A stretch of 64,000 bases of DNA from Actinomycetota bacterium (lineage in GTDB: Bacteria; Actinomycetota; Actinomycetes; Actinomycetales; Kineosporiaceae), in the NCBI GenBank assembly GCA_030837345.1, contig JAUPKQ010000051.1, forward strand, positions 717-64,716, given 5' to 3'. The position numbers and the translations under genes were made by a program. Position 1 is the stretch's first letter, and each line of letters starts with the position of its first letter. The notes below the pieces were generated by a model. The model searched no databases and was not told the origin of the DNA. It was given only the letters and a program-made list of their open reading frames with translations. Below are positions 19,639-59,000 of this stretch, in pieces.

Positions 19639-20581
<943 letters not shown>

Positions 20582-30316: not shown

Positions 30317-30345
30317 CTGTATCATCACTACACTAGGTGGCTGGC

Positions 30346-31761: not shown

Positions 31762-31762
31762 C

Positions 31763-33811: not shown

Positions 33812-34414
33812 TCAGGTCGAGGCCCGGCGTTGCGACCGTGTGCGCACCGCGGCCTGGTAGGCGGTCGCCGCGGAGGGATGGGCCCCGGGGGCGGGCCACC
33901 AGCGGGCGCGGGCGAGGGTGAAGGGGTACCACCTCCGGTCCGGGCCGAGCCGCAGACGGATCCCCGCCGTGACGTCGACGATCTCGCCGGCGCCGAGGGT
34001 GAGATCGTCGGACGCGAACGCCCGCCGTCCGCGGACCTCCTCCGCCGCCGCCTCGAGATCCTCGGCGTCGCACGGTGTGCCCGCGAGGGCCGCGGCGACG
34101 CCGTCGTCGCCACCGTGCCGGTGAGCGAGCACGAGTCGTCGCAGGTCGTCCTCCGGGATGCCGGTGAGCCTCTCCGCCGCGGCGACGTGTCGTGCCCCGG
34201 CCGGGGTGGCGAGCATCCGGACGGCGTCGACGAGGGGATCTCCGGCCGTGGCGGGACCGCCCGCGAGAAGGGCGGTGGCGCGTTCGGCGGCGTCCGAGAC
34301 GAGAAGGCCGAGCTGCTCGGGGCCGGGGACGCCGGACGGCGTGGGCCAGGTCGCCCAGGCGTTCGCGTCTGGGAGGTCAGAGCGAGCCGCCCGGTCCGTG
34401 TCGTCGGTGGCCAT
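33812..34414 (-). CDS. Uncharacterised 200-aa protein translationally coupled to the SNF2 ATPase.
   Basis: The ATG shares one nucleotide with the SNF2 TGA (TGATG). The sequence has an acidic N-terminus and a Trp-rich C-terminus ('RRWYPFTLARARWWPAPG'). No family recognised. Confidence 0.6.
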   Translation of the reverse strand: MATDDTDRAARSDLPDANAWATWPTPSGVPGPEQLGLLVSDAAERATALLAGGPATAGDPLVDAVRMLATPAGARHVAAAERLTGIPEDDLRRLVLAHRHGGDDGVAAALAGTPCDAEDLEAAAEEVRGRRAFASDDLTLGAGEIVDVTAGIRLRLGPDRRWYPFTLARARWWPAPGAHPSAATAYQAAVRTRSQRRAST

Positions 34415-38412: not shown

Positions 38413-38521
38413 CAGTCCTGTTTATCGTGGTCGGTCCCCGCCCTGCGACCTTTCCGGTCAGCTCGTCCACCGCACCGTTACGGTGAACCGGCAGAAGCCG
38501 TCGGCAGCAGGGAGAGAGGCA

Positions 38522-41178: not shown

Positions 41179-41334
41179 ACGATCGGTTCCACGGGGTCCC
41201 TGAACCGCGTGGACGACGCCGAGGTCCGTCGAGGTGCGTGCCCGAAACACTACCGAATGTGGTTTTCGATAACTAGGGTGAGGGAGCAGCCCGATCCTCG
41301 GAGCGGGCGGATCAGCCTTCGAAAGGTGAACTCC

Positions 41335-42924
41335 GTGACCCGACCGCTCTACCTGCGCCCACGCATCGTGGGCCCGCTGGAGGACCTGCTCCGGGACGGG
41401 CCTCTCCTGCATGACCTGGTGCGGGCCCTCGGCTCCCCGCTCAACCTCGTGATCCCGGACCGCCTGCCGCACAACCTGGAGCACTTCCGTGAGGTCTACC
41501 GGCGGCGGCGGTTGTCGGGAGAGATCTTCTTCGCCCACAAGGCGAACCGTTCCGCCGCGTTTCCCCGGCTGCTGGCGGCCGGGACCGGTGCGGGGGCCGC
41601 CAGGATCGACGTCGCGAGCCTGGCCGAACTGCAGACCGCCCTCGGATCGGGGTTCGAACCGGCCCGCATCCTGGTCACCGGGCCCAAGACCCCCGAGTTG
41701 CTGTGGCTGGCCGCTCGGTGCGGCACCACCGTCCAGGTCGACGGGATCGCCGAACTGCTCGGGCTCGTCGACGTCGTCCGGCGGCACGGCTTCCCGCGCA
41801 GCCGCGTGCTGCTGCGACTTTCCGGATTCGCGTCCACCGGCACGACGGTGATGAGCCGCCCCAGCCGCTTCGGCCTGGCGGCCGAGGAGGCCGACGCCGC
41901 GATCGACGTGTTTCTCACCCACCCCGACACCGTGGATCTCCTCGGCGTCGGCTTCCACCTCGACACCGTCGGCGTCAGGGAGAAGGCCGTCGCTCTGGAG
42001 AGCTGCCTGCACGTCGTCGCCACGTGCCTCGGACGGGGCCTCTCCCCGCGCGTCGTCGACATCGGAGGCGGATTCGGCGTCAGTTATCTCGCCCACGCCG
42101 ACGACTGGCACGCCTGGACGTCGGAGCTGACGCAGGCCGTCCTGGGCCGCAGACCCCCGATGACCTGGGACGGGCACGGGTACGGGCTGCGCGACGACGG
42201 GGGAACCCTGCGAGGAACACTCGGGCTCTACCCCGCGCACCGGCCGGTGTCCGGCCCCGCCTACCTCGACGCCATCCTCTCCGCCCCGGCACCGTCGTTC
42301 GACGGCCAGCCCCTCGCCACCGTGCTGCGGGAACTACTGCTGCACCTGTGGATCGAGCCGGGCCGTGCCCTGCTGGACCAGTGCGGCGCGGTTCTGGCGC
42401 GGGTACTTGAGGTCCGCCCCCGGCCCGGCGGCCACCACGTCGTCCGGCTCGACCTCAACGCCGGCGACGTCAGCCTCGAAGAACACGGCGTCCTCCTCGA
42501 TCCCCTGCTCCTGCGCCGCCCCGATGCGGACCGTGCCGGCCACCCGGACCGTGCCGGCCACCCGGACCGCCACGGGCGGGCCACGCCGCCGGACGGACCG
42601 CAAGGGGTCTACCTGCTCGGGAACCTGTGTCTCGAGGCCGATCTCATCACCCGCCGCCTGGTGTACCTGCCCGGGCTGCCCGAGACCGGGGACCTGCTGG
42701 CCTTCCCCAACACAGCCGGCTACGTCATGGACTTCCACGCGGACCACGCCATCGGCCAGCCGATCGCACGGACGGTCGCAGCCTGGCCGGGGGACGGCCG
42801 GTGGCACTGGTGTCTCGACGAGCAGTACTGGCCGCTCGGCCTCCCCACCGGCGAGGCGGTCGCCGGCGAGGCGGTCGCCGGTGACCGGGCGGCTGACACG
42901 CTCGCGGAGGGGACGCGGGCATGA
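41335..42924 (+). CDS. Fold-type III PLP enzyme (Orn/DAP/Arg-decarboxylase-like, Y4yA-like).
   Basis: GTG at 41335 follows AAAGG. PLP-lysine motif 'FFAHKANRS' (Lys codon 41539-41541). 'VDIGGGFGVSY' and 'LWIEPGRALL' are present. The tail carries two perfect in-frame tandem duplications. Confidence 0.8.
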   Translation: MTRPLYLRPRIVGPLEDLLRDGPLLHDLVRALGSPLNLVIPDRLPHNLEHFREVYRRRRLSGEIFFAHKANRSAAFPRLLAAGTGAGAARIDVASLAELQTALGSGFEPARILVTGPKTPELLWLAARCGTTVQVDGIAELLGLVDVVRRHGFPRSRVLLRLSGFASTGTTVMSRPSRFGLAAEEADAAIDVFLTHPDTVDLLGVGFHLDTVGVREKAVALESCLHVVATCLGRGLSPRVVDIGGGFGVSYLAHADDWHAWTSELTQAVLGRRPPMTWDGHGYGLRDDGGTLRGTLGLYPAHRPVSGPAYLDAILSAPAPSFDGQPLATVLRELLLHLWIEPGRALLDQCGAVLARVLEVRPRPGGHHVVRLDLNAGDVSLEEHGVLLDPLLLRRPDADRAGHPDRAGHPDRHGRATPPDGPQGVYLLGNLCLEADLITRRLVYLPGLPETGDLLAFPNTAGYVMDFHADHAIGQPIARTVAAWPGDGRWHWCLDEQYWPLGLPTGEAVAGEAVAGDRAADTLAEGTRA

Positions 42925-44270
42925 GGTACGACGACATCACCCACGCGATCGGCAACACCCCGCTCGTCCGGATCGACCCGGCGGTTCACGGCCTGGAACA
43001 CATCGACCTCTACGCCAAGCTGGAACTGCTCAACCCGTTCGGGTCGGTGAAGGACCGGACCGCCTGGGCGATGGCCGCCCCGCACCTGGACCGGGCGCGG
43101 GCCGACGGCGCCACCGTCGTGGAACTGTCGAGCGGCAACACGGCCAAGGCGCTCGCCGTCATCGCGGGCATGCACGGGTTGCCCTTCCGCAGCGTCACCA
43201 ACCGGATGAAGGTTCCGGAGATCAAGGACCTGTTGTTGCTCCTGGGGGCCCGGATCGACGAGCTCCCCGGTCAGGGGGAGTGCCTCGACCCCGGCGACAC
43301 CGAGGATCCCCTGACCCGCATGTACCGCACCGTGTCCGCCTCGGCGGACGCGATCCTGCACACGGACCAGTACTTCAACCCGGACAACGTCGGGGCTCAC
43401 GCCACCGGCACGGGTCCTGAGATCATCAAGGATCTGGACGGCGACGTCCCCGGGCACTTCATCGCCGCGGTCGGGACGGCCGGCTCGTCGACCGGAGTGG
43501 CCCGGGCACTGCGCGCCCGTGACGCGAGGGTCGACGTCACCGGGCTGGTGGCGGATAAATCGGACTTCATCCCCGGGATCCGGACGATCGACGAGGTCCA
43601 CGAGGTCGGGCTGTTCGACCCGGAAACCTACGACCGCATCGAGCCGGTCACCTCCTTGGAAGCGATCGACGGGATGCTCGTGCTGCTGCGCCGGTGCGGG
43701 ATCCTCGCCGGGCCGACGGGTGGAGCGGCCTACTTCGGTGCGGTCCGCCACCTCCGCACGGTCGACGAGGGCTTGCGCGCGACCGCCGCCGCGGGCCGAC
43801 CCGTCGCACGCCGGCGGGCCGTCTTCATCGTCTGTGACCGGGTGGAGTCCTACCTGAGTTACGTGCGCGAGCGGCGGCCCGACCTCTTGAACCGGCCCCC
43901 TCGCCCCCACTCGGTCCGAACGGTCACCGACGAGGAGGTGGCGGGCGCGCGGACGTTGGACGTCGAGGCCGCCCGGCCCTGGCTGGCGGCGACGGGGGCC
44001 CTGATCGTCGACCTGCGGGGGCCGTTCGCGTACGCCACCGCCCACCTCGAAGGATCGATCAACATCGCCGACGAGCTGTTCGACGAGATGGTGCGCGGGG
44101 GACTGCCGTTCCCGCCGACGCGTCCGTTGCTGCTCGCCTGCCCGGTCGGAGAGCGGTCCCGGCGGTACGCGGCCCTTCTGGCCCGGATGGGACACCAGGA
44201 CGTCGCCAGTCTCGACGGCGGGATCGTCGCGTGGCGGGACGCCGGCGCCCCTCTGGTCCGGCGGTCGTGA
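42921..44270 (+). CDS. Fold-type II PLP enzyme (cysteine-synthase/CBS-like) fused to a C-terminal rhodanese domain.
   Basis: ATGA start/stop overlap with the upstream gene. 'IGNTPLVRI...LELLNPFGSVKDR' (Lys codon 43050-43052), 'SSGNTAKALA' and 'GTAGSSTG' are present. Rhodanese part: 'ALIVDLRGPFAYATAHLEGSINI' with the active-site loop 'LACPVGERSRR' (Cys codon 44139-44141). Confidence 0.85.
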   Translation: MRYDDITHAIGNTPLVRIDPAVHGLEHIDLYAKLELLNPFGSVKDRTAWAMAAPHLDRARADGATVVELSSGNTAKALAVIAGMHGLPFRSVTNRMKVPEIKDLLLLLGARIDELPGQGECLDPGDTEDPLTRMYRTVSASADAILHTDQYFNPDNVGAHATGTGPEIIKDLDGDVPGHFIAAVGTAGSSTGVARALRARDARVDVTGLVADKSDFIPGIRTIDEVHEVGLFDPETYDRIEPVTSLEAIDGMLVLLRRCGILAGPTGGAAYFGAVRHLRTVDEGLRATAAAGRPVARRRAVFIVCDRVESYLSYVRERRPDLLNRPPRPHSVRTVTDEEVAGARTLDVEAARPWLAATGALIVDLRGPFAYATAHLEGSINIADELFDEMVRGGLPFPPTRPLLLACPVGERSRRYAALLARMGHQDVASLDGGIVAWRDAGAPLVRRS

Positions 44271-45475
44271 TGACACGTCCGGACGGCGTCCTGTCCGAGC
44301 TCGCCGCGTGGCAGGCCGCCGTCCGTGACCAGTTCCCCATCCTCTCCGGTGCTCCGGGCAGTTACCTCGACAGCGCCGCGACCGCGCAGAAGCCCCGCGC
44401 GGTGCTCGACGCCGTCCAGGAGTACCTGACGACAGGCAACGCCAACGCCGGTCGCGGCTCCTACCCCTGGGCCGGGCGCACGACCGCCCTGGTGGACCGC
44501 TGCCGGCGCAGGATCAAGGGTTTTCTCGACGATCCGGAACCAGACCGCTCCGTCGTCCACGTCGTCGGCGGGACGACCGCCGCGCTGCGCACCCTCGCCC
44601 TCGACTGGCTCGTCGACCACCTGACCGACGGCGACGAGATCGTCGTCCCGTTCGCCGACCACGAGGCCAATGTCAGCCCGTGGCGGGAGGCGCGCGACGT
44701 CCTGGCCCGCCGCGGCGTCCGGATCGAGGTCGTGGCGATGCCCTACGAGCCCTCCGGCGACTACGACCTCGCCGCGCTGGCCGCTCTGGTGTCGCCGCGC
44801 ACCCGGTTCGTGGCGGTGACGCACGTGCATCACGTGTTCGGGGTGGACATGAACATCCATCGCCTCCGCGACGTGATCGGTCCGGAACCCGTCGTGTGTC
44901 TCGACGCGGCGCAGAGCCTCGGGCACCTTCCCGTCTCGGTGCGCCGTCTCGACGTGGACTTCCTGGCCTTCTCGGGACACAAGGCGATGGCCCTGCCCGG
45001 TGTCGGCGTCCTGTGGGCCCGCAACACGCGCGGACGGCGCTACGCGCCGCGTGGCTGGGAGGGCAGCCCGAACACGACAGGCCTCGTCAGCCTGGAGGCG
45101 GCCCTGGACTGGTTCGAGGAGACCGGCGTCGAACGGATCGCCCTCTGGACGAGGGCCCTCGGCGCCCGCCTGACCGCCGCGCTCGACACACTCGACGCCT
45201 ACCGGGTCCTCGGCTGCCAGGACAGCCTCGCCGCGGGGTCCACCGTCCAGCGCCGGCAGGGCATCGTGACGTTCCGTCACCGCGGGATCCCGGCCGCCGA
45301 CCTTGGGTTCGTACTCTCGGAGCACGGCTTCATGGTGCGGGCGAACAGCCACTGCCAGGCCGGCGCGACACCGGGCGACGCCTCGGTCCGGGTGAGTCTG
45401 CATGTCTACAACACCGTCGAGGAGATCGACCGTCTCGTCGGGCTCCTCGCGGCGTTGAACGCGGAGTGCGGGTGA
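44270..45475 (+). CDS. Class V aminotransferase-fold PLP enzyme (cysteine-desulfurase-like).
   Basis: The ATG overlaps the upstream TGA (TGATG). 'YLDSAATAQKP', 'VTHVHHVFG', 'FSGHKAMALPGVG' (Lys codon 44981-44983) and 'RANSHCQAG' (Cys codon 45353-45355) are present. Confidence 0.85.
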   Translation: MTRPDGVLSELAAWQAAVRDQFPILSGAPGSYLDSAATAQKPRAVLDAVQEYLTTGNANAGRGSYPWAGRTTALVDRCRRRIKGFLDDPEPDRSVVHVVGGTTAALRTLALDWLVDHLTDGDEIVVPFADHEANVSPWREARDVLARRGVRIEVVAMPYEPSGDYDLAALAALVSPRTRFVAVTHVHHVFGVDMNIHRLRDVIGPEPVVCLDAAQSLGHLPVSVRRLDVDFLAFSGHKAMALPGVGVLWARNTRGRRYAPRGWEGSPNTTGLVSLEAALDWFEETGVERIALWTRALGARLTAALDTLDAYRVLGCQDSLAAGSTVQRRQGIVTFRHRGIPAADLGFVLSEHGFMVRANSHCQAGATPGDASVRVSLHVYNTVEEIDRLVGLLAALNAECG

Positions 45476-45495
45476 CCGTGCTCGTCGCGGTCACC
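45471..45495 (+). terminator. Short hairpin spanning the stop codon of the PLP operon.
   Basis: ggtgaccg / cggtcacc forms an 8-bp stem with a 9-nt loop and is followed by tttgt. Confidence 0.4.
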
Positions 45496-45675
45496 TTTGT
45501 CGCGATCGCCGTAGCGGCACCTTGGCGTCAGCGATGCTCCCCTGGTGAGCGGTCACGTGACGAGGCTCGTCGATCACGCGTCGGCGGAGCGCGTCTGGGC
45601 GCCGTCCTGTGGCTGGAGGAGGAGTCAGGCGCACCGGGAGCTGGCTGTCGGACCAGCGTCGTACGCTACGTGCCG

Positions 45676-47178
45676 ATGCTCACACGAGGTGTAGAAGGCG
45701 CGTATCAGGGGGCACGGCGGGCGTTCCAGAATCCGATGCTCGCCCTGCTCCATCAGACGCACGCGCCGTTCGTGGTGACGATCCTGGCGATGGTCTTCAC
45801 GGCGGAAAGGCCGAGGGTGGCCGTGGCGGACACCCACGCGGAGATCAACGACGCCCTCGGCCAGTTGCGGGCGGCGGGCTACGGCGACGAGGGCAACCAT
45901 CCGCTGCCCGCCGGGAACGCGCGTGACCTGTGCAGACAGTGGGTGCAGGCCGGGTGGCTGGTGCGTCAGGTGTCCGACGACGACGTCGAGGTGTACCGGT
46001 TGTCCGCGTACGGGGTCGGCGCGCTCGAGGTCGCCGGGCGGGTGGGCGGGGTGCGCACGAAGGTGTCGGAGTCGAGGGTCAGGACGTTGCTGGAGGCGAT
46101 CGAGCGGCTCGCCCAGCACGCTGATCCGGATGTGATGTCCCGGATCGCGCGCCTGCACGAGGAGATCCAGCTGAGGCAGAAGGAGGTCGCCCGGCTCGAA
46201 CAGGGCGGCGCCGTCGAGACCGTCGATGACGAGCAGCTGCTCGAAGCGGCCGAGAACGTGCTCCACCTGGCGCGGGAGCTGCCCGCCGACTTCGCCCGCG
46301 TGGCGGAGTCGATCAAGGCTATCCAGCGTGACGTCGTCGCCGAGCTGCGGCACGACGTCCGGCCGACGGGCGAGGTGCTCCGCGAGTACCTCGCCCGGGG
46401 GCAGCAGATCCTCGACTCGACGCCGGAAGGCCGCGCGTTCGCGGGGGCGCTGCGCTTGATCGGTGATCCCGCACAGATCGATGACCTGTGGAATCAGCTG
46501 CGCACGGTACTCCGGCACCGGTTCACGAAGCTGCTGCCGGAACAGCAGCGGCGAGAGCTCACCGAGATCTCGCGGCGGATCGAGCAGGGCGTCAAGGACG
46601 TGCTGACGGCGCAGCGGCAGGCCTCCCACGTGATCACCACCCAGGTCCGCACCCACGATCCGATGCGCGACCGGCAGGTGGATGAGCTGCTGCGGGCTGT
46701 GATGTCCGGTTTCCACATGTGGATCCCCAGCTCCCGCCGTGGCGAGGTCATTGAGCCGATGCGCCGCCTCCCGGTCGCCGAGGTCGGGCATCTGCGGCAG
46801 CGGATGAGTGACCTGCGGCCGCCACAGCCGCCCGTGCCGTTGCCGGAGTGGGACGAGGACGAGGACACGGCGGCCGGGGACACCCGGGCCTGGGGCGGTC
46901 CCCGGTACGCCGAACTGCGCGCTCACCTGGCGGCGTGTTCGCAGGGTGCGGCGAGCGTGGACGTCGTGGCCGCGTTCCGGGAGGCGGCCCGGGACATCCG
47001 GCGGCCGGTCGACCTGCTCGGCCTGCTGGAGATCGCCCATGACACCGGGATGACCGAGACGGCGGAGGTCGCGGTGGTCGATACGATCCGACCTGACCTG
47101 ACCCGGCGGCGGTTCGCCCTGGGCGGCGTGGTGATGACGGATCCGGCGAGGGCGGAGGGGCTCGGTGACGATGAGTGA
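45676..47178 (+). CDS. jetA: Wadjet JetA (DUF3375-type kleisin-like subunit).
   Basis: 500 aa. The N-terminus '[25 protein letters not shown]' and the central coiled segment '[22 protein letters not shown]' fit. Size and position ahead of DUF4194 and an SMC-like ATPase fit the JetA-JetB-JetC order. The upstream part of track ORF 44680.. overlaps the aminotransferase gene and was rejected. Confidence 0.75.
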
Positions 47179-47842
47179 GCCGCGCGGCTCCGACGACGGT
47201 TGGCCGGCTGACACGACGACCGGATTCATCGACCCGGTGTCGATGGAGGACGATCCCACCGAGTTGTTCGCCGGCGACGCGGGCACCCTGGACGCCGACG
47301 TCCGCCGGGTCCTCGTCCAGCTGCTGCGCCGCAAGTTCCTCCTCGCTGAGAAGAACCCCGCCCAGTGGCGCACGTTGCTGGAGAACCAGCAGATCATCGA
47401 ATCGCGGATGCACGACCTGTTCATCCGCCTCGTGGTCGACCACGACCGGGGCGTCGCCTACAAGCAGCAGGTGCGCTCGGCGGAACTGGACGTTCCGATC
47501 CTCCTCAAGGACGACCCGTACACCCAGGCCGAGACCCTGGTGCTGGTGTACCTGAGGACCGTCTTCCAGCGGGAACGCGGCGCGGGGGAGACCTCGGCGC
47601 GGGTGGACATCGAGGAGCTGGAGCAGACCGTCCTCACCTATTTCGATCCGGACGACTACAACATCGCCCGCAGGCAACAGGAGGTCCGCAACGCGGTGCA
47701 ACGCCTGGTCACCGAGGGCCTGCTCACGGAGGAGTCCGCGGGCCGCTACCGGATCACCGCGATGGTGGAGGTCGTGCTGAGCACCGCCAAACTCACCGAG
47801 CTGGAGCAGTGGCTGCGCAGGAAGAACGAGGCCGCGGTGTGA
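47165..47842 (+). CDS. jetB: Wadjet JetB (DUF4194-type, MksE-like).
   Basis: 225 aa. '[54 protein letters not shown]' matches the DUF4194 pattern as I recall it. It overlaps jetA by 14 nt. Confidence 0.75.
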
Positions 47843-47844
47843 AC

Positions 47845-50800
47845 ATGATCGACACCTTGTTCGGCCTGATCCCGGCGGTGTCGCGAGGCCAGCAGTGGGT
47901 GGGGCGCGACCTGCAACTCGTCAACTGGGGCGGTTACGACGGGTACCACCACCTGCGGTTCGCGCCCGGCGCGACCTTGCTCAGCGGAGGCTCAGGCTCT
48001 GGCAAGTCGACGCTGATGGACTCCTACATCGCGTTGCTCATGCCCCACACGACCCCCTTCAACGGCGCCTCGAACGGCGGCGTGGTCGGCAGGCCCCGGG
48101 GAAAGGATCAGCGCAACATCCTCTCCTACGCCCGCGGCAAGCTCGACGAGTCCCGGACCGGCGGCGAGACGAAGGTGCGGGTCCTGCGCGGGGACGGCCG
48201 GGACACCTGGTCCGCCATCGCGATGACGTGGATCGACCACACCGGCGCCGAGTTCACCGCCCTCCGCGCCTGGTACGTCCCGTCGTCCGCGCGAACCCTC
48301 GACGACGTCACGGTGGTACGGGCCACCTGCGACCACGCCTACGCACTTCGCGCCCTCGAAGGTCCGGCCACGCGGAGGCTCGCTCGCGCCGTCGTCACGG
48401 CGACCGGCCTGACCTGCTATGACACCGACCGGGACTTCACCGCGCGGCTGCACACCACGCTCGGCATCGGCGCCGCGGGCGACGGGCACAAGGCGGTCGC
48501 CCTGCTGGGGCGGATCCAGGCCGGGCAGCAGATCACCACTGTCGACGCCCTGTACAAGACGATGGTCCTCGAGGAACCCTCCACCCTGGCCACGGCGGAC
48601 GCCGCGGTCCAGCAGTTCGACGAGCTGTCGGGTACCCGGACCAGAATGATCATCGCCCGCCAGCAGGTGAAGGCCCTGACCCCGATCCGCGAGCACCGGC
48701 GCGCCATCGACGACGCGGTGGACCGGGCGCGGCTGATCGACGAGGTCGGATCGTTCACCGACGCCTCCTCCCCGGCCGCGTTGTGGCGGTACGGACGTCG
48801 CCTCGACCTGCTGCGCGCGGCCGAGAAGGACCTCGCCCAGCGGCTCCGCAAGGCCAAGAACGAACTGGCGGAGACCAGCGCCCTGGCCGAGGCGGCCGAC
48901 GCGCAGCGTGAGGGGGTCGTCGAGACGCTCCGCGCGTCCGGCGGAGACCGCCTGGACACCGCGTTCCGGGAGATCCGCGACGCCGAGCGGCGGCTGGGCG
49001 ACGTCCAGCGCTCACGGGAACGGCTGGACCGCGCGCTCGCCGCCGTCGACGCCACCGTCTCCACCCGCGAGGATTTCGCCGCCCTGGTCGAGACGGCTCA
49101 TCGCTCCCTGACCGACCTCGACGCCAGGAAGACCGTCCAGAACCGGTTCGCCGACGCGATGGTGGAGAAGAAGGACGCCGACCGCGAGCTGGCGCGGTTG
49201 AACGCCGAGCACGCGGCGGTCAGGACACGCCGGGACAACATCCCGACCGAGCTGCACACCGCTCGCGCGATGCTGGCCGACGCCGCCGGGCTCACCCCGG
49301 CGGACCTCCCGTTCGTCGGAGAACTGATCGAGGTACGGACGGAGTTCGAGCCGTGGCGTGAGGCGTTCAACCTGGCGCTCGGCGGATTCTCCACCCGGAT
49401 GCTCATCGACATCGGCCGGCTGCACGCGTTCCGTGAGGCGATCAACGGGGTGTCGACCGCCCGGCGGATCCAGTTCGAGGGGGTGCGCACGGGCCTGCGC
49501 GACGACGTCGGACTGGACGGCAGGACGCTCCCGGGCAGGCTCGACTACCGGCCGTCGCCGTTCACCGCCTGGTTGAAGAGCGAACTCGCCCGGCGGTTCG
49601 ACTTCGTCTGCGTCGAGACGCCCAAGCTGCTGGGGCAGCATCCCCGGGCGCTCACGATCAGGGGCCAGACGTCGGAGGGCGGCCGGGGAGCCCACGGAGG
49701 CCACGGCCGGGCCAACATGCTCGGCTTCACGAACGGCAGGCTGCTCGCCGATCTCGAGGCCCGGATCGGCCGCGCGCGGGACCGTCTCGACGACGCCGAC
49801 GTCTCGGTGGCGAAGGCCGAGGAGGACCTCAACTCGTTCGAAACCAGACGCGCGACGTACCAGACCGTGGCCGAACTGACCTGGGACCAGGTGGACGTCG
49901 AATCCGTCCTCGCCGAACGGGACCGCTGGAACGGTGTCGTCGACGAGATCCGCGCGGGGAATCCGCGGCTCGACGAGTTGCAGCGTCAAATGCACGAACT
50001 CAAGGCGCGGGTGACGCAGCTGACCGAGCGGGTCGGCCGGCAGAAGGTCACGGTGGAGGTGCTCGACCGGTCCTGGACGTCGACCGTCGACGAGGTGGAC
50101 CGTGCCCAGTCCGCGCTCGACACGGCCGCGGAGCAAGGCGCCGACGTCCGCCGGGACCACCGGTCGTACCTGGAGTCGCTCTTCGCCACCGACCCGGCCA
50201 CCGACCCGGCCATCGACCCGGCCGGTTCCGCCGGGGAGGGGATGCTCGCGGAGTTCGACGCGACGGTGAAGCACGCGACCGAGCGGATCCGCGCCGACCG
50301 GCAGTCCGCGACGGAGACGATCACTCGGTCGGGAAAGGCGCTGGCCGACACGTTCTCGACGTTCATCGAGCGATGGCCGAACCCGAACCTCGGCACCGAC
50401 GCGGACGCCTCCTACCGCGACTTCGACCGTCTGCTCACCGACCTGGAGACCAACGGCCTGCACGAGCTGGAGACCGACTGGAGGGACAGCCTCCTCAAAC
50501 TGTCCGGCAACGACCTGACCGGTCTGGACAGCGAACTCGCCTCCGCCGTCCGGGAGATCCGCGACCGGATCGACCCGGTCAACCGCATCCTCGCCGGGCT
50601 GCCGTTCGCCGACGACCAGCACCGGCTGCGCATCGATCCGCAGGAGAGCCATTCCGCCGTGCGCGCCCGTTTCCGCAAGGAACTGCGTGACGTTCGTGTC
50701 GTCATCGACCAGGCGGAGACGGACGACGCCCGGGAACGCGCCTATCACCGGATGGCCAAGGTGATCGACCGCATCCGGCGTACCGCCCCCGATTTCGCCG

Positions 50801-51219
50801 ACCTCGTCGACGTCCGCAACCACGTCCGGATCAGCGCCGAGAAATGCGATCTCGACGGCCGGCACGTCGCCGTCTACGACCACATCGGCGAGAAATCCGG
50901 AGGTGAGTCCCAGGAACTCGTCGCATTCATCGTCGGGGCCGCGCTGCGTTACCAGCTGGGCGACGCGGGCGCGGACCGCCCCCGTTACGCCCCCGTCTTC
51001 CTCGACGAGGCGCTCATCAAGGCGGACGCGCACTTCACCGGCCGGGCGATCGGCGCCTGGCGCGGCCTCGGCTTCCAGCTGATCGTCGGCGCCCCGAATG
51101 ACAAGCACAGCGCGATCGAACCGCACGTGGACGCCGAGTACCTGATCCTCAAGAACGACCAGGGCCGGTCGTGGGCGAAACCCCTGGTCGGGGTGCCGGA
51201 AGTCCTCACCCGGGGCTGA
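47845..51219 (+). CDS. jetC: Wadjet JetC (SMC/MksB-like ABC ATPase).
   Basis: 1124 aa, starting 2 nt after the jetB stop. Walker A is 'LLSGGSGSGKSTLMDS', followed by long coiled-coil arms. The C-terminal signature and Walker B are 'GEKSGGESQELVAFIVGAALRYQL...PVFLDEALIKAD'. Confidence 0.85.
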   Translation: MIDTLFGLIPAVSRGQQWVGRDLQLVNWGGYDGYHHLRFAPGATLLSGGSGSGKSTLMDSYIALLMPHTTPFNGASNGGVVGRPRGKDQRNILSYARGKLDESRTGGETKVRVLRGDGRDTWSAIAMTWIDHTGAEFTALRAWYVPSSARTLDDVTVVRATCDHAYALRALEGPATRRLARAVVTATGLTCYDTDRDFTARLHTTLGIGAAGDGHKAVALLGRIQAGQQITTVDALYKTMVLEEPSTLATADAAVQQFDELSGTRTRMIIARQQVKALTPIREHRRAIDDAVDRARLIDEVGSFTDASSPAALWRYGRRLDLLRAAEKDLAQRLRKAKNELAETSALAEAADAQREGVVETLRASGGDRLDTAFREIRDAERRLGDVQRSRERLDRALAAVDATVSTREDFAALVETAHRSLTDLDARKTVQNRFADAMVEKKDADRELARLNAEHAAVRTRRDNIPTELHTARAMLADAAGLTPADLPFVGELIEVRTEFEPWREAFNLALGGFSTRMLIDIGRLHAFREAINGVSTARRIQFEGVRTGLRDDVGLDGRTLPGRLDYRPSPFTAWLKSELARRFDFVCVETPKLLGQHPRALTIRGQTSEGGRGAHGGHGRANMLGFTNGRLLADLEARIGRARDRLDDADVSVAKAEEDLNSFETRRATYQTVAELTWDQVDVESVLAERDRWNGVVDEIRAGNPRLDELQRQMHELKARVTQLTERVGRQKVTVEVLDRSWTSTVDEVDRAQSALDTAAEQGADVRRDHRSYLESLFATDPATDPAIDPAGSAGEGMLAEFDATVKHATERIRADRQSATETITRSGKALADTFSTFIERWPNPNLGTDADASYRDFDRLLTDLETNGLHELETDWRDSLLKLSGNDLTGLDSELASAVREIRDRIDPVNRILAGLPFADDQHRLRIDPQESHSAVRARFRKELRDVRVVIDQAETDDARERAYHRMAKVIDRIRRTAPDFADLVDVRNHVRISAEKCDLDGRHVAVYDHIGEKSGGESQELVAFIVGAALRYQLGDAGADRPRYAPVFLDEALIKADAHFTGRAIGAWRGLGFQLIVGAPNDKHSAIEPHVDAEYLILKNDQGRSWAKPLVGVPEVLTRG

Positions 51220-51232
51220 ACCGCCAGCCTGG

Positions 51233-52138
51233 TCAGCTCAAGCGGTAGTTCTGTCCCTTCCAGAAGGACGTCGGGTCGGGGTTGTCGAGGACGGGGTCGT
51301 TGACGCTCTTCGACGCCAGGGCGTGACGGCCCGGCCGCATCTCGACGTGGGTGTGGGCGCTGCCGCTGGCCGAGACTCCGCGCCAGCCCTCGGTGGCGAT
51401 CTGGTGGCCCCGGCTGATCTTCTGCCCGGTGCGCAGGTCCGACGCCGGGGCGGAGTGCAGGAAGATGACCGTCTTGTTGGTGCCGGGGTCGTAGATGGCG
51501 ATGGTCGAGAGCCCGCCGCTGCCGTTCGCTCCCCGGACGACGTTGACGACCGTGCCGCCGACGAGGGCATGGACCGGTGAGCCGACTCTCCGGGCGAAGT
51601 CGATCCCCTCATGGCGGCCCGAGGTGGTGGAGTAGCCGTCGAACCGGCAGACGAGGCTCCCGCCGGTGGTTCCGTAGAGCGCGGCCGACAGACTCCGCGT
51701 GCTGCCGGGCTGCGTGCCGCCCTTCGTGGTGCCCAACCTGTGGGAGGCGTTCTCGTTCTTGAGGGCGGCGTCGAGGTTCGCCGAGGATCCGGCGGGGATC
51801 GTCTGGCTCCTGCCGGTGAAGCCGGTGTTGAAGTAGATCGTCACGGGTGTGGAGGTTCTGTTCCTGGCCGACGCCGCGTGGTTCTTCACGCACAGTCCTT
51901 TGCCGGCTTCTTTCCCCCTGAACTCGTAGCACGACGGCTGCGTCGTCCCGTAGTCGGCCAGGGAACCGGTGAAGTCCGACACCGCCCCCTGCTGATTGCT
52001 GTTGTAGAAAAGACAGAACTCGCCCGCTTCGCAGACACCGTTCCTGGCGGACGCCGGGGCGGACCAGGCGGTGACGGCGGAGACGGTGAGAAACGCGATG
52101 GCGGTGGCACCGACGATGACGGTCTTCTTCAAGCTCAT
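51233..52138 (-). CDS. Secreted protein with an I36-like peptidase-inhibitor domain fused to an M23 (LytM-type) metallopeptidase domain.
   Basis: Start MSLKKT is preceded by AGGAG and a signal peptide is present. I36-like part: 'CEAGEFCLFYNSNQQG...CVKNHAAS'. M23 motifs: 'GRHEGIDFA' (HxxxD) and 'SAHTHVEM' (HxH). Confidence 0.8.
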   Translation of the reverse strand: MSLKKTVIVGATAIAFLTVSAVTAWSAPASARNGVCEAGEFCLFYNSNQQGAVSDFTGSLADYGTTQPSCYEFRGKEAGKGLCVKNHAASARNRTSTPVTIYFNTGFTGRSQTIPAGSSANLDAALKNENASHRLGTTKGGTQPGSTRSLSAALYGTTGGSLVCRFDGYSTTSGRHEGIDFARRVGSPVHALVGGTVVNVVRGANGSGGLSTIAIYDPGTNKTVIFLHSAPASDLRTGQKISRGHQIATEGWRGVSASGSAHTHVEMRPGRHALASKSVNDPVLDNPDPTSFWKGQNYRLS

Positions 52139-52183
52139 GGATGGCTCCTTTTTTCGGTTCGTGGTCACGGATCGCCCGCGGGT

Positions 52184-53206
52184 TCAGGGGCGGGGAATGA
52201 CGGCCAGAGGATGGCGGCGGTACTGCTCCCAGGTCCGTAGGCGAATCCGGGGGCCGTCGTCCGGGCCGCGGTTCGCCAGGCCGCCCAGGCCGAGGCAGTA
52301 GTCGCCGGTCTGGTGCTGGGCCTGGGTGGAAAGGTCGGGGTCGCTGATCGCGACGGCGTGGAGGTGCCAGGGCCACGCGCCCTGCCGGGGGGAGCGGAGC
52401 CATGCCGCGAAACCGACCTCGCGAAGAGCGCGGACGGCGGCGGTACGGGTACTGGTACTCAGGCCGGCGACCGAGAGGTCGATGGCGCCGCCGCCGTCGT
52501 GCGTGCCGGCCGAGGTGGGATCCCCGCCGGGGTTGTAGGAGCCCTGCAGGACGACCAGGCGGCGGCCGAGCAGCCGCTCGGCCTCGGCGAGCATCGCCAG
52601 GGTGCGCGTGGTGACGACGTGCCCGTCACGGGAGGTCCGGGCGCCGGGGACGACGGTGCGGATCACCCGGTACCGGCCAGCGCCGAGCCTGGTCAGCGAG
52701 GTCGCGCCGGGCAGCCCGTTCGCGTCCGTCCCGGTGTACCCGAGGGAACGCTGGTAGGCCGCATAGGCGGTGATCGTCTGGGTGCCGAAGTAGCCGTCGG
52801 CCCAGCGCGCGTCCAGCAGGTGCCGGGCCCCGAGCGCCCGTTCGACGGCCAGCACCGAGGCCTTCGCGCCGGGGGTCAGGGTGTTGTCCGGCCGGCGGGG
52901 GTCGATCTGGGCGGCCAGGACCGTCGCCTCCATGTCGACGGCGGGTAGCACCTCGACGGCGGGAAGCACCGTCGAACTGAGGGACGCCGATGAGGCGCCG
53001 TACGCCGGGACGGCGACGATGGCGGCGAGAGCGGCAGCCAGGCCCGCGGCGGTGATCCCGGCAGGCAGGCCCGCGGTGGTGAGACCGGTGGCCAGCCGGT
53101 GAGCGCATCCGGAGGATCCTCGTCGTGTACGGCGGGCGCCGTCGTGGCGAGGCGTACCCTGACGGCGGCCATGGCTGACCGAGGTGGGTGTTTCGGGGGA
53201 TGGCAT
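52184..53206 (-). CDS. Secreted peptidoglycan-binding (PG_binding_1) protein with an M15/LAS-type zinc peptidase-like domain.
   Basis: PG-binding part: 'VLAVERALGARHLL...DGYFGTQTITAYAAYQRSLGY'. LAS signature: 'GTHDGGGAIDL' (Hx6D) and 'WPWHLHAV' (HxH). The start is uncertain (53206 or 53242). Confidence 0.65.
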   Translation of the reverse strand: MPSPETPTSVSHGRRQGTPRHDGARRTRRGSSGCAHRLATGLTTAGLPAGITAAGLAAALAAIVAVPAYGASSASLSSTVLPAVEVLPAVDMEATVLAAQIDPRRPDNTLTPGAKASVLAVERALGARHLLDARWADGYFGTQTITAYAAYQRSLGYTGTDANGLPGATSLTRLGAGRYRVIRTVVPGARTSRDGHVVTTRTLAMLAEAERLLGRRLVVLQGSYNPGGDPTSAGTHDGGGAIDLSVAGLSTSTRTAAVRALREVGFAAWLRSPRQGAWPWHLHAVAISDPDLSTQAQHQTGDYCLGLGGLANRGPDDGPRIRLRTWEQYRRHPLAVIPRP

Positions 53207-53360
53207 GAGGGACACGGTGGTCGGCGCCGCCGAGACGGCCAAGGGCAGGCCCTGCCCCCTGCCCGACGTCGCCGGGCCGGGGAGAGCGGAGTTGCGGCCG
53301 CCCGCAGAGGGCCGACCGGTGTCTGCTGACGGGCGCCACGGGTCAGCGGACGCCCTCTTT

Positions 53361-54032
53361 GTGCTTACTTACTGTGACGAAGAGTATTTCTTCGGTGAAG
53401 GTTCCTGGGGTCGGTTCGGCCGTGACGACGACGTCTGTGAGATCACGGTGTGGAACGAGATCCGCGACGTCTCGCTCTCCCGGGTGGCGGGCGAGATCTG
53501 GTGCGCCGACGGGCAGCTGTGGGTGCGCAATCTGTCCGCCAGTCACGAGCTGGTCGTCCGTGGGGGAGGACGGCCCCAGTGGCTGGGGCGGCGTGAGCCG
53601 GGCTCGCGCGGTGCGGCCTGCTCCGTCCCGGCGGACGGGGCCGTGATCACCGCGCCCAGCACCGGGACCTGGAGGCTCACGGCGTCCTCCCTGTGCGCCG
53701 ACCGGGCGGCCGCTGACCTCACCGCGCAGGGAGCAGCTGCCGCGGACCGGCTCACGACGGTGCGCGTCGAGCCCGTGCCCGAGCGCTACGCGGCGGTGGC
53801 GTCGGCCCTGTGCGCCCCCCTTCTGGCGGACTCCGACGTCCCCGCCACCTATGACGAGGTGGCGCGGCGACTGGGGATCAGCCGCCGCCAGGCCCGCCGC
53901 TACATCGAACAACTGTGCGATTATTACAGAGTCGCACTGCCGGAGAAGGTCCTGCCGCCTCCCTCACCCGGAGTTCCCGCCTATCAGCCGCTGGCCCGGT
54001 TGCTCGTGGCCCGTGGCCTCGTGCGAGAGTGA
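53361..54032 (+). CDS. FHA-like domain protein with a C-terminal HTH-like segment.
   Basis: 'WGRFGRDDDVCEITVWNEIRDVSLSRVAGEIWCADGQLWVRNLSASHELVV' follows the FHA pattern (GR...SR.H..i....g.l.v.dl.S.ng). The C-terminus reads 'ATYDEVARRLGISRRQARRYIEQL'. The start is very uncertain: the track ORF begins at 53184, and I prefer GTG at 53361. Confidence 0.5.
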   Translation: MLTYCDEEYFFGEGSWGRFGRDDDVCEITVWNEIRDVSLSRVAGEIWCADGQLWVRNLSASHELVVRGGGRPQWLGRREPGSRGAACSVPADGAVITAPSTGTWRLTASSLCADRAAADLTAQGAAAADRLTTVRVEPVPERYAAVASALCAPLLADSDVPATYDEVARRLGISRRQARRYIEQLCDYYRVALPEKVLPPPSPGVPAYQPLARLLVARGLVRE

Positions 54033-54042
54033 GGAACGGGAC

Positions 54043-55545
54043 GTGGTGACGGAGGGGGATTCCGGCGTCCCACGGGTGCCACCGCACTTCCGGGCGGTGC
54101 GATTGCTCGGCCAGGGGAGCACCGCGGTCACGTGGCTCGCCCACTACGAGATCACCGGTCAGGACGTCGCGCTGAAGGTGTGGCGGTCTTCGTTCCGTGG
54201 CCAGGCGGACAGGGACCGGTTCGTCAACGAGTGTCGCTGGCACCGTCTCCTTGACGGGGAACGTGGCATCGTCGGCTGGATCTGGGCGTCGGAGCCGGAC
54301 CTCGAACACCCGTGGACCGCGACGCAGCCACACGGGCTGGCCCTGACCGAGTACCTGCGCCGCTACCGGATCAGCCCCGAGCAGGCCGTGCGGCTCAGCC
54401 TGGACCTGCTCGACGGGCTGTCCGCCGTCCACCGCCGGGGCCTGGTCCACCGGGACATCAACCCCAACAACGTCCTGGTGGACGACGCCGGCGCAGCTCT
54501 GTGCGACTTCGGCCTGGCCATGCCCGTCGACGGAACGACCCTGGACCGGGCCGCCGGGACGCCGGGGTTCGTCGCCCCCGAACTGAACGTCGAGGCGCCG
54601 GGTTTCCGGTCGGACGTGTACTCGGCGGCGCAAACCATCGGCCGGCTGCTGACCGCCGGCGTCCCGGCCGCGATCGACCACCTGGTGACGGCGGTCGCCG
54701 GGTCGAGCAGGCCGAGCGACCGGCCCGCCGACGCCGCCGAGTTCGCCCGCCGCCTCCGGGCCGCGGCGGAACACACGCTGACGTCGCACGGTGCGGATCC
54801 CGTGCCGGACACGGTGATCGTCCCGCCGGACACGGCGACCGTTGCGCGGGACACCGCGACCATTGCGCCGGAGGTGGCCTCCCCGCCAGGACCAGCGGGG
54901 ACGCCCGCCGCCACGAGGCGTGGCCACCGTCGGGGGCGTGCGCTCGCCGTTGTCGGGGGAGTCGTCGCCTGCGCCGTCCTGGCCGCCGTCGCGGTGTCGT
55001 GGCCGTGGCTGTCCGGAGGCGCGGGGAACGGGGACGAACGCGTCGTGACGACCTCCAGTCCCGCCACGGCGGCACCACCCGCCACAGTGACGCCACCCGC
55101 CACGGCGGCACCGCGCGCCACGGTGACGCCGCGCGCCACGGTGACGCCGTTCCTGGCGGCCGACATCGGACCGAACGGCGAGCCGATGCTCGGCCCTGCT
55201 CGGCCGGCCGGTCGGTGTGACGGCCGCCTCCGTTCGACCGAGGAGTTGAAGAGCCCGGCTGGTGCTGCCGTCGGGACGATCAAGGTGTACGAGGACTCCG
55301 GCGGGAGGACGTGTACCAAGTTCCTCAAGGCAGAAGGGCCGTTGCGGACGGTGAAGACCTACCTGGCCCTCACCGTCTGCAACCCCCAGGGCAGATGTGA
55401 CAGGGACTGGAACCTGTACCTCCAGGACGCCGGGCCGCTGCGGGTGAGCTCGCCCTCCGGCTGTCTGCGCTGGCGGGTGTCCGCCACCGACGCCGACGGC
55501 ACGACCTGGTTGCTCCGTGACCGCACCGGGTCGTCGGGCTGCTGA
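54043..55545 (+). CDS. Ser/Thr protein kinase with a single TM segment and a Cys-containing extracytoplasmic domain.
   Basis: 'LLGQGSTAVTWLA...VALKV', 'GLVHRDINPNNVLV', 'LCDFGLA' and 'GTPGFVAPE' are present. The TM segment is 'ALAVVGGVVACAVLAAVAV'. A Pro/Ala/Thr repeat linker leads to a C-terminal domain with 6 Cys. Confidence 0.85.
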   Translation: MVTEGDSGVPRVPPHFRAVRLLGQGSTAVTWLAHYEITGQDVALKVWRSSFRGQADRDRFVNECRWHRLLDGERGIVGWIWASEPDLEHPWTATQPHGLALTEYLRRYRISPEQAVRLSLDLLDGLSAVHRRGLVHRDINPNNVLVDDAGAALCDFGLAMPVDGTTLDRAAGTPGFVAPELNVEAPGFRSDVYSAAQTIGRLLTAGVPAAIDHLVTAVAGSSRPSDRPADAAEFARRLRAAAEHTLTSHGADPVPDTVIVPPDTATVARDTATIAPEVASPPGPAGTPAATRRGHRRGRALAVVGGVVACAVLAAVAVSWPWLSGGAGNGDERVVTTSSPATAAPPATVTPPATAAPRATVTPRATVTPFLAADIGPNGEPMLGPARPAGRCDGRLRSTEELKSPAGAAVGTIKVYEDSGGRTCTKFLKAEGPLRTVKTYLALTVCNPQGRCDRDWNLYLQDAGPLRVSSPSGCLRWRVSATDADGTTWLLRDRTGSSGC

Positions 55546-56037: not shown

Positions 56038-59000
56038 ATGTGGACGGTCATGATTTCTAGCGATTCGTGGGCCGCTGAGACGGCCGCAGGTATTTCCATC
56101 CCCAAAATGCCCAGGCCGGACGGCGGAACACGCCGGGATCTCGTCATTGGTCTGAGTCCTTTCGGGCGGCCTGACGCGCGTCTCGTCGCGGAGGTGGCGG
56201 CCGCCGGGGCGATGGGGGTTCTCGACCTCGGCGGTCCCCGCCGGGAGGCCCTCACCGAACTCGCCTCCGCCACAACCTGGGCGTCCTCTCCGCTGGGGGT
56301 CCGGGTCAGCCGCGACTGCGCCCTGCGACCCGACGACCTGGAGCCCTTCTCCGGCGCGGTCGACACACTCGTGCTCGGCGCGGACCTCACCGACGACCGG
56401 ACGATGATGTGGCTCGGCGGTGACCTGGCCGTCCGGGTGCTGGCCGAGGTGACGACCGTCGAGGAGGCCGAGGCCGCCGCCCGGTACGGCGCGGCGGGGA
56501 TCATCGCGGTCGGCGGCGAGGCCGCCGGCAAGGTCGGGGAGCTGAGCTCGTTCGTCCTGCTGCAGAAACTCCTCTCCGGGGGGCCGGCGCTGCCGGTGTG
56601 GGTCCGTGGCGGCATCGGCACCCGCACCGCGGCGGCCGTCGTCGCGGGCGGCGCCGTGGGTGTCGTCCTCGACGCCCAGCTCAGCTCCCTGGCGGAGGCG
56701 GACGTCGCCGAGCGCCTCGTCGCCGCCGGTCACCGTCTCGACGGGGAGACCCACGTCGTCGCCGGGTTCCGCGTCGAGGTCCCCTTCTCGGCGCGGGCCG
56801 GCGGGGCGGACCTCGACGCGATGACGCCCGCCGACGTCCTGGCCCGGATGCGCGCCACGCCGTCGGAGGCGTTCATCCCCGTGGGGCAGGACGCGGCCCT
56901 CGCCACCGAGTTCGCCGACCGCTTCGGGACCGTGGCGCGCGCCGTCCGGGGTGTGCGCGAGGCGATCGCCCACCCGGACGCGACGATCCGTGCCGCCCGT
57001 GCCGTGCTGTCGGCGGACTCCCCGCTGTGCGCGGATCTCGGCCTGCGCCGTCCTGTCGTCCAGGGACCGATGACCCGCGTCAGCGACACCCCCGAGTTCG
57101 CCCTCGCGATCGCGGACGACGGCGCGATGCCGTGCATGGCGATGGCCCTGGCCGACCGTGAGGCGACTGCCCGCCTGCTGCACCGGACCCGGGACCTGCT
57201 GCACCCGCGCCCGTGGGGGGTGGGCCTTCTCGGCTTCGCCCCGGAGGAGATCAGGACGGCTCAGCTCGACGTCATCCGCGAGGTGAAGCCGTCCGTCGTG
57301 GTGATCGCCGGAGGACGGCCCGCCCAGGCCGCGCAGCTGGAGGCCGACGGGATCCCGGCGTTCCTCCACGTTCCCTCCCCGCTGCTGCTGCGCCAGTTCC
57401 TCGACGCCGGCGCCCGCCGGTTCGTCTTCGAGGGGATGGAGTGCGGGGGACATGTGGGCCCCCGGGCGAGCCTGCCCCTGTGGGAGTCGCAGCTCGCCGT
57501 CCTCGACTCCTTCCTCGACGAGCGTGAGGCGGGGCCGGACGCCGGTGCCGACGGGCTGTCGGTCCTGCTGGCCGGCGGGATCCACGACGCCCGTTCCGCG
57601 GCGATGGCGGCCGTCGTCGCCGCACCGCTCGCCGCCCGCGGGGTCGCGGTGGGCCTGCTGATGGGGACCGCCTACCTCTTCACCGACGAGGCCGTCCGCA
57701 CCGGGGCGATCCTGCCCCGCTTCCAGGAGCACGTCATCGACGCCTCCTCGACCGCGCTCCTGCGGACCGCGCCCGGCCACCTGACCCGCTGCGTTCCGAG
57801 CCCGTTCGTCGACCACTTCGAGCGGGTCCGCCAGCAGTTGCACGCCGAGCGGGAGACCGGCGCGGACACCTGGAGCGCCCTGGAGTCACTGACCATCGGG
57901 CGCCTGCGCCTGGCGAGCAAGGGCGTGACGAGGGACGCCGGACGCCTCGTCGAGGTCGACGAGGAGCGCCAGTCCGCAGAGGGCCTGTTCATGGCGGGGG
58001 AGGTGGCCGCTCTGCGTGACGCCGCCACGACCGTCCAAGCCCTGCACGACAGCGTCACCGACGGGGCGGCCCGGTTCCTCGGCGCGGCGGACGGCGGTGT
58101 GGCGGACGGCGGCGCGGACAGTGGCGCGGCGGATCCCGGGCGGCGTCCGGTGCCCGCCGTCACCGTCACCGAACGGGACCGGCCCGCCCCTCGGCCCGTC
58201 GACATCGCCATCGTCGGCATGTCCTGCGTCCTGCCGAAGGCCGACGACCTGCCCACCTACTGGGCCAACGTCATCAGCGGCGTCGACGCCGTCGAAGAGG
58301 TTCCCGCGCACCGCTGGGATCCCGGCATCTTCTACCGCGACGATCTCGACGGGAAAGCCAGCGGCCGGTACACGCCGTCGAAGTGGGGCGGGTTCATTCC
58401 CCGGATCTCCTTCGATCCGCTGCGGTACGGCATCCCCCCGTCGATGCTGCCCAGCGTCGAGCCCGTCCAGTTCCTCTCCCTGGAGGTGGCACGGCGCGCG
58501 CTGGACGACGCCCGGCTCGCTCCCGGAACCTTCGACCCCTCGCGGACAGCCGTCGTCTTCGGCACGGAGACCAACAGCGAGTTCCTCAGCGGCATCACCC
58601 TGCGGGGGGCCCTTCCCTCCTACTACGGCGAGGTCCCCCCGGAACTCGACGCGGTCCTGCCGACCATCACGCAGGACACCTTCCCCGGGATCCTCGGCAA
58701 CATCATCGCCAGCCGGATCGCCAACCGTCTCGACTTCGGCGGCCCCGCCTACGTCGTCGACGCGGCCTGCGGGTCCTCCCTCGCGGCCTTGGACATGGCG
58801 TGCAAGGAGCTCGTCCTCGGCACCGCCGACACCGTGGTGTGCGGGGGAGCGGACCTGCACAACGGCAGCATGGACTACCTGCTCTTCTCCTCCCTGGGGG
58901 CGCTGTCGCCGTCCGGCCGCGCGCGGACTTTCGACGCCTCGGCCGACGGCACGACCCTCTCCGAAGGGGTGGTCTGTGTCGTCCTCAAGCGGCTCGAGGA

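Follow-up and report, generated by a model that had tools for sequence, protein, structure and literature searches.

What becomes of a plasmid-cleaving defence system once its nuclease has gone, and what keeps the remaining subunits in place? This question is raised by a locus at positions 45676-51219 of a 64,000-nucleotide (nt) stretch of the actinomycete contig JAUPKQ010000051.1 (Kineosporiaceae), hereafter the window, in which genes for the JetA, JetB and JetC subunits of a Wadjet system stand in a row without jetD. JetABC serves as the sensor of circular DNA, a loop extruder powered by ATP, and the cutting is done by the Toprim nuclease JetD. In the systems tested, all four Jet subunits are needed for restriction (PMC10586767; PMC10123090). 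A preliminary description of the window proposed three explanations for the missing gene: jetD was deleted, jetD is encoded elsewhere in the genome, or JetABC works with a different effector.

In this work, the locus was compared with a set of 101 related loci (designated by L numbers), which was assembled from a single genome scan and a single metagenome scan, supplemented by loci looked up one at a time. The reading that we favour, and hold with moderate confidence, is that jetD was lost by deletion and that JetABC was retained as a nuclease-free condensin of the MksBEF kind.

Gene content of the operon

Pfam families, PADLOC profiles and solved structures agree, over the full length of the proteins, with the initial assignment of the three genes to the JetA, JetB and JetC families, and all three open reading frames (ORFs) were found at the positions first given. 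The jetA gene (45676-47178, forward strand) encodes a full-length kleisin of 500 amino acids (aa) that matches Pfam DUF3375 (E=2.9e-111), a defining feature of type I Wadjet, and the PADLOC JetA1 model PDLC00464 (E=1.4e-209, residues 5-494 of 500). The jetB gene (47165-47842, forward strand; 225 aa from the GTG at 47165) encodes a KITE subunit carrying a further defining feature, DUF4194 (2.2e-39); it also matches Pfam MksE (30.5 bits, 5.5e-07, cut-off 27) and the PADLOC JetB1 model PDLC00473 (1.9e-109). The SMC-like ATPase encoded by jetC (47845-51219, forward strand; 1124 aa) has Pfam matches to AAA_29 and SbcC_Walker_B, matches the PADLOC JetC1 model PDLC00517 with 1657.6 bits over residues 1-1119 of 1124, and shows a weak similarity to the MukB N-terminal family (22.2 bits, under the cut-off of 23). 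Its Walker A (GSGSGKST), signature (SGGE) and Walker B (FLDE) motifs are intact, as described before, and fall in columns that are invariant over an alignment of 20 relatives. The solved chains 8dk1/8dk2 and 8as8 (Pseudomonas aeruginosa, Escherichia coli GF4-3) are matched lengthwise by JetA, JetB and JetC, with E-values of 2.2e-49 (8dk2_C) and 1.2e-48 (8as8_A) for JetC residues 18-1108 and 7.7e-19 (8dk1_A) for JetA. No record was found for the exact sequence of either the window JetC or the database protein P0001.

The spacing first given for the operon, a 14-nt overlap of jetA and jetB and a 2-nt gap between jetB and jetC, is correct for the start codons then chosen, but these are not necessarily the ones in use. 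The more likely jetB start is the ATG at 47171 (223 aa), as called in L014, L015 and L019, which reduces the overlap with jetA to 8 nt, and jetC may start at the GTG at 47839 (1126 aa), as in P0001 and relatives, giving a 4-nt GTGA overlap with jetB. The order jetA-jetB-jetC with closely coupled ORFs holds for all of these starts, and under either choice the three genes are predicted to be translationally coupled. The 200 nt upstream of jetA (45476-45675, forward strand), which follow a class V aminotransferase gene, presumably hold the promoter and leader; consensus scans for sigma-70 promoters and terminators, which are uninformative in actinomycete DNA of 70% GC, yielded nothing meaningful. 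By homology, the region 45676-51219 is a Wadjet operon of type I that comprises jetA, jetB and jetC and lacks jetD.

Search for jetD in the window

That jetD is lacking both next to jetC and in the rest of the 64 kb, as first reported, was upheld by searches of all six frames of the window: tblastn with the JetD proteins of two related loci gave best E-values of 1.3-3.7, hmmsearch with a first JetD profile hidden Markov model (HMM) gave a best E-value of 0.39, and a larger profile of 10 sequences gave nothing at E<=1e-3. The sensitivity of the search was not limiting, because the larger profile detects JetD at ~1e-123 beside JetC proteins that share only 26% identity with that of the window. 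The 13-nt gap between the jetC stop codon (51219) and the stop codon of the convergent peptidase gene was likewise read directly in the sequence, and this spacer (51220-51232) holds no jetD remnant, either on inspection or as a JetD HMM match. Since JetD, with its DUF3322 arm/CAP and Toprim/DUF2220 nuclease domains, is a defining member of type I Wadjet operons and is missing here, the operon is not to be filed as a complete Wadjet system.

Deletion of jetD in the window lineage

The closest relatives of the window JetC (78-84% identity) belong to Lentzea, Sphaerisporangium, Actinoplanes, Actinomadura and Spirillospora, and most of them bear jetD. Complete jetABCD operons, with jetD overlapping the jetC stop codon, were found in L014 (Lentzea), L045, L016 (Actinoplanes), and L017 and L101 (Spirillospora), so that the synteny comparison proposed in the preliminary description places jetD at the orthologous site in near relatives. 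L014 is 84% identical to the window in JetC and 88.8% in JetA (residues 1-500), with a range of 84-89% over JetA, JetB and JetC. Other near relatives have only a jetD stub (L015, Sphaerisporangium; called as 42 aa, of which ~30 aa match JetD) or no jetD (L001 and L021).

Alignment of the DNA with the jetD-positive relatives is colinear up to position 51200 and unrelated beyond it, so homology stops two codons ahead of the ancestral jetC stop. At this junction the jetD-positive relatives read GAC GCA TGA (Asp-Ala-stop), a stretch that contains the ATG of jetD, whereas the window carries a scar (51201-51219, forward strand) that encodes a new five-residue JetC tail, VLTRG, and a stop codon in place of the ancestral overlap of ...VPDA-stop with the jetD start. 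Among the jetD-positive loci, JetD and JetC identities correlate pair by pair (r=0.93). It follows that jetD has belonged to the operon from its ancestor onwards and diverged along with it, and was not added late and repeatedly. A side observation concerns L039 (3723-5120) and L089 (9168-10568), where JetC is 96% identical and JetD only 64%, with the differences mostly in the N-terminal arm/CAP half; in this pair JetD appears to be evolving much faster than its JetC partner.

Because the nearest relatives are jetD-positive, the junction falls within the last jetC codons and independent jetD remnants occur in sister lineages, we infer that jetD was once present and was then deleted in the window lineage; of the three explanations first offered, deletion is the one backed by the comparison. 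The whole operon was probably inserted at its present site in this lineage, since L020, whose neighbouring aminotransferase is 82% identical to that of the window, has the upstream gene trio but no jetABC. The trio (window 41209-45475; L020 7057-11209) comprises genes for an Orn/DAP-decarboxylase-like protein, a PALP-rhodanese fusion and a class V aminotransferase, and probably forms a small cluster for sulfur or amino-acid metabolism.

Selection on jetABC since the loss

A sister strain is represented by L019, an independent contig of metagenomic origin (ENA ERZ25039477 contig_141190). It matches window positions 42411-55428 at 99.1% identity over 13 kb, with no difference in gene order. The jetC/peptidase junction is identical in the two sequences, and the deletion therefore predates the split of these strains. 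Since that split, 13 substitutions have accumulated in jetABC, 10 of them synonymous and 3 non-synonymous, where the codon content, combined with the transition/transversion mix observed, predicts ~31% synonymous changes (binomial P=0.001; ratio of non-synonymous to synonymous rates, dN/dS, ~0.11). The sole indel in jetABC is an in-frame 24-nt expansion of an ATDP repeat (ATDPATDP) in L019; this repeat, in the coiled-coil region of JetC (window 50184; L019 ~7775-7800), is length-polymorphic. Outside the genes, L019 has a 13-nt deletion upstream of jetA at window positions 45577-45589. The synonymous excess, the dN/dS of ~0.1 and the preserved frame of the one indel argue that jetABC has been maintained by purifying selection since it lost its nuclease gene, with a jetD acting in trans as an alternative cause of that selection.

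Loss of jetD in related loci

The frequency of jetD loss was assessed in a census set of 57 loci with full-length JetC and at least 1.3 kb of downstream sequence. JetD is absent from the fetched flanks of 45 of these loci, three others retain remnants (L005, L015, L025), and only nine have an intact jetD; essentially every jetD-less locus encodes JetA and JetB at full length. Actinomadura macrotermitis RB68, Rathayibacter iranicus, R. agropyri, Nocardioides turkmenicus and Cellulomonas iranensis are among the relatives without jetD. The rarity that the preliminary description implied for a nuclease-less JetABC is contradicted by these counts. Its own reservation, that the three-gene form might be standard among relatives or an already described MksBEF type, holds in part: the form predominates in the census, and MksBEF operons are an established class.

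On a neighbour-joining tree of JetC, loci with an intact jetD or a remnant of it are spread over at least five separate clades, and Dollo parsimony yields 18 jetD-less clades and 3 remnants. This scatter of states over the tree implies about 20 independent losses, a count that depends on the neighbour-joining tree and on the assumption that jetD was not regained. One possible exception to the usual operon layout, a tandem jetABC-jetABC arrangement without jetD in L018 (Actinomadura welshii, 16.4 Mb record; 180-11345), was excluded as a probable scaffold artefact, as a run of N begins 29 nt into jetD.

Older jetD-less lineages are also under clear purifying selection. Rathayibacter iranicus and R. 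agropyri, which have one jetD-less junction in common, give a dN/dS of 0.11-0.12 at a dS of 0.31-0.37, and a jetD-less Cellulomonas pair gives 0.03-0.07; the values for jetD-positive pairs are 0.10-0.29. Downstream of jetD-less loci lie genes such as argS (arginyl-tRNA synthetase), glgP (glycogen phosphorylase), a gene for a penicillin-binding protein (PBP) and a phosphate transporter gene, and because these neighbours are mostly housekeeping genes, the loci seem to reside stably in the chromosome and not in defence islands. The Lentzea atacamensis jetABCD operon (L014) offers a contrast to these housekeeping neighbourhoods: it lies within a dense defence island (1431-6736 and 14757-23345) with two TIR-TPR/AAA proteins, N6 methyltransferases, a UvrD helicase, an MmeI-like enzyme and an SNF2 helicase.

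These data bear on the possibility that the defence was merely switched off when jetD was lost, as might happen if taking up a useful plasmid were favoured, and that jetABC is a functionless relic that has not yet degraded. Such a relic would be in keeping with the requirement for all four subunits in restriction (PMC10586767; PMC10123090), with frameshifts in some jetD-less relatives, and with the divergence of only 0.9% between the window and L019, which leaves little time for decay. The substitution pattern in the window lineage disfavours it, both in the 10:3 ratio since the deletion and in the frame-preserving indel, and the older jetD-less lineages have remained full length at dN/dS values of 0.03-0.12 and dS values of up to 0.37. 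Moreover, if inactivation alone drove the losses, jetABC with its 5.5 kb should be hit no less often than jetD with its 1.2 kb. Yet in the loci found through an intact jetC, jetD is usually gone, and jetA and jetB are intact almost without exception. We therefore regard a dead remnant as an unlikely account of this operon.

Possible partners of JetABC

Purifying selection on jetABC would be equally compatible with a nuclease encoded elsewhere in the genome, either alone or within a second Wadjet operon, and serving the window JetABC; the view taken here covers 64 kb of that genome, and several jetABC sets per genome may occur in some actinomycetes, the sole case (L018) being the one that adjoins a scaffold gap. 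The layout of the related loci speaks against such an arrangement, as every JetD among the 101 loci follows its own jetC directly, usually with an overlap, and none was found detached within +-6-10 kb. A further hint comes from JetC itself. In E. coli, JetD docks on the 'larynx' of JetC through F919 (10.1101/2023.11.03.565488). The residue aligned to F919 is V in the window and F in the nearest jetD-positive relatives; it is F or L in all nine jetD-positive sequences and A, Q or H in long-standing jetD-less clades, in an alignment of ~25% identity whose register is uncertain and possibly off by one. This pattern hints at relaxed constraint at the JetD-docking site, and taken together we consider a JetD supplied in trans to be improbable, somewhat more so than a dead remnant.

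Alternatively, JetABC could cooperate with a different effector, such as the product of the convergent M23 peptidase gene or of a gene that replaced jetD. A possible case of replacement is found in one Cellulomonas group, in which a small ORF of 116 aa (L002 13369-, L007 13369-13719, L010 2329-) occupies the position of jetD and is translationally coupled to jetC through a GTGA overlap with its stop codon. This ORF has a borderline match to Pfam MazG (E=1.6e-4, 22.3 bits, cut-off 22) and may be a replacement partner for jetD; an STAND NTPase gene lies downstream of jetC in L085. However, no downstream family is common to the jetD-less lineages: the clusters obtained are lineage-specific or antisense artefacts, and the downstream genes are mostly housekeeping ones. 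In the window, the neighbour is convergent, lacks a PADLOC match and does not adjoin jetC in any other lineage examined, and the other PADLOC matches within ~13 kb are generic (an SNF2 helicase core, a cysteine desulfurase fold and a Ser/Thr kinase). A substitute effector is accordingly very improbable for the window operon.

Several other candidate effectors were considered and rejected. The ORF downstream of jetC in L001, which had weak PADLOC matches suggestive of an SduA/CARF effector, proved to be a LuxR-type response regulator. ORFs of ~400 aa after jetC were identified as a phosphate transporter (L034) and as the above STAND NTPase (L085), and ORFs of ~830 aa in L059 and L064 as glycogen phosphorylase.

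A model for the retained complex

The explanation that we prefer, loss of jetD followed by retention of JetABC in its own right, can be put as a sequence of steps. A horizontally acquired type I jetABCD operon would have lost jetD by a single deletion, the left edge of which lies two codons ahead of the jetC stop. The remaining genes would still encode a translationally coupled kleisin, KITE subunit and SMC ATPase, and we infer that these would assemble into a dimer-of-motors SMC complex that binds DNA, hydrolyses ATP and extrudes loops. Without the Toprim nuclease the captured DNA would stay uncut, so that JetABC would act as a nuclease-free, MksBEF-like condensin, with a role in chromosome or replication-fork organisation or in the non-destructive handling of circular DNA, its plasmid-cleaving defence function having been lost. 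On balance, condensin-like or non-destructive handling of DNA is the most likely value for which the complex has been kept.

A number of observations weigh against this reading. The post-deletion sample is small (13 single-nucleotide differences), and although the genes flanking jetABC show a synonymous to non-synonymous ratio of ~1:1 between the window and L019, the contrast with jetABC is not significant (Fisher P=0.11). The selection detected could reflect cooperation with a jetD encoded outside the window. Retention is not universal either, since frameshifts interrupt jetB in L008 (R. iranicus; decay site 9256-9887) and jetC in L013 (R. tanaceti; 47-2004), the genes being intact in the congener R. 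agropyri (L011). In Corynebacterium glutamicum, removing mksG produces the same plasmid phenotype as removing mksB or mksF, and that MksB was not found to have a chromosome role (PMC10123090). For none of the close homologues is a function independent of jetD established, and no sequence link from the window JetC to an experimentally studied MksBEF emerged: no Mycobacterium or Pseudomonas protein is among the best 120 matches to the window JetC or to the Nocardia JetC P0100, so that an attempt to connect the clade to M. smegmatis MksB/EptC through a search with P0100 failed for lack of Mycobacterium sequences among those matches.

Genomic context

The window has a GC content of ~70% and resembles an actinomycete chromosome, with a type I polyketide synthase, a DUF5753 regulator and an SNF2/DUF3670 helicase. 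The synthase gene (56038-63270, forward strand) encodes a module of 2410 aa with KS, AT, ACP and KR domains. The helicase gene (34414-38421, reverse strand) encodes an SNF2-family protein of 1335 aa with DUF3670 and a double-stranded-RNA-binding motif, and its PADLOC matches to ZorD, DpdE and DrmD cover the helicase core only. The GC fraction falls to 0.58-0.60 at positions 28000-32000, compared with ~0.70 elsewhere, and this stretch may be a horizontally acquired island. No tRNA genes were found anywhere in the window.

PADLOC matches of window neighbours to the defence genes ZorD/DpdE, SspA/DndA and PD-T4-6 were rejected as generic helicase, desulfurase and kinase domain similarities. In particular, the desulfurase resembles SspA/DndA at the level of the fold only, and belongs to the conserved metabolic trio that occurs without jetABC in L020. 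The convergent gene downstream of jetC (51233-52168, reverse strand) combines Inhibitor_I36 (2.4e-12) and Peptidase_M23 (8e-11) domains; it is context only and lies outside the system.

Relation to known systems

The operon resembles type I Wadjet systems (JetABCD, also MksBEFG or EptABCD, of E. coli GF4-3 and P. aeruginosa PA14, and MksFEBG of C. glutamicum) in its core subunits, their order and the overlapping ORFs. It differs in the lack of jetD and in the replaced five-residue tail of JetC, and on its gene content plasmid cleavage is not expected. It shares with MukBEF the SMC-kleisin-KITE architecture, but the window JetC has only the sub-cut-off MukB N-terminal match mentioned above, and the gene order mukFEB is unlike that of the window operon. 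MukBEF, a distant family, also differs in taxonomic range (enterobacteria and their relatives, PMC10586767), and the window operon is not a member of it.

The closest structural counterpart is MksBEF, as in P. aeruginosa and in M. smegmatis (MksB-MksEF), a three-gene kleisin-KITE-SMC operon without MksG, and the window operon has exactly this composition. Further similarities are the window JetB score above the Pfam MksE cut-off and the chromosomal, often housekeeping neighbourhoods of the jetD-less relatives. Such MksG-less operons are a described class (10.1101/2022.10.04.510915 citing Petrushenko 2011; PMC11329512; PMC10586767), and an origin of MksBEF from JetABCD via the loss of JetD has been proposed in a review (PMC10586767). 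MksB of M. smegmatis, which shares its operon with MksEF, follows the replication forks (PMC11329512), and roles in chromosome organisation, segregation or replication are known only for the P. aeruginosa and M. smegmatis homologues (PMC10586767; PMC11329512). The difference is one of age and of evidence: MksBEF proteins form families that are old and diverged and whose roles in the chromosome or in replication have been demonstrated (PMC11329512; PMC10586767), whereas the window operon is very recent and known from sequence, and its JetC is still 78-84% identical to the JetC proteins of working-type jetABCD operons. The window operon is thus a young, well-documented example of a known arrangement and not an oddity. 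The fine-scale picture, with a mapped scar, post-loss selection between sister strains and independent loss of jetD in about four-fifths of the loci, was not found in the literature searched.

Conclusions

As regards how the chromosome-organising condensins MksBEF and MukBEF relate to the Wadjet nuclease, reviews go no further than to speculate that MksBEF arose once JetD was lost. The locus described here and its relatives supply dated examples at the level of the junction: the scar in the window, the stubs in L015, L005 and L025, and dozens of intact, constrained jetD-less operons. They also provide natural matched pairs, such as the window JetABC and the 84-89% identical Lentzea JetABCD, with which the function of JetABC without its nuclease can be addressed. 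To our knowledge, defence-system finders require all four jet genes, and a three-gene group as large as this one would probably escape them.

We put forward, as a possibility held tentatively, that Actinobacteria repeatedly convert the anti-plasmid Wadjet complex into a nuclease-free SMC motor kept by selection, with the window operon among the youngest cases. If this is true, the route from JetABCD to condensins of the MksBEF and MukBEF type would be observable in progress, and JetABC would have a cellular function of its own without JetD, for example in the organisation of the chromosome or the replication fork, or in the non-destructive control of circular DNA.

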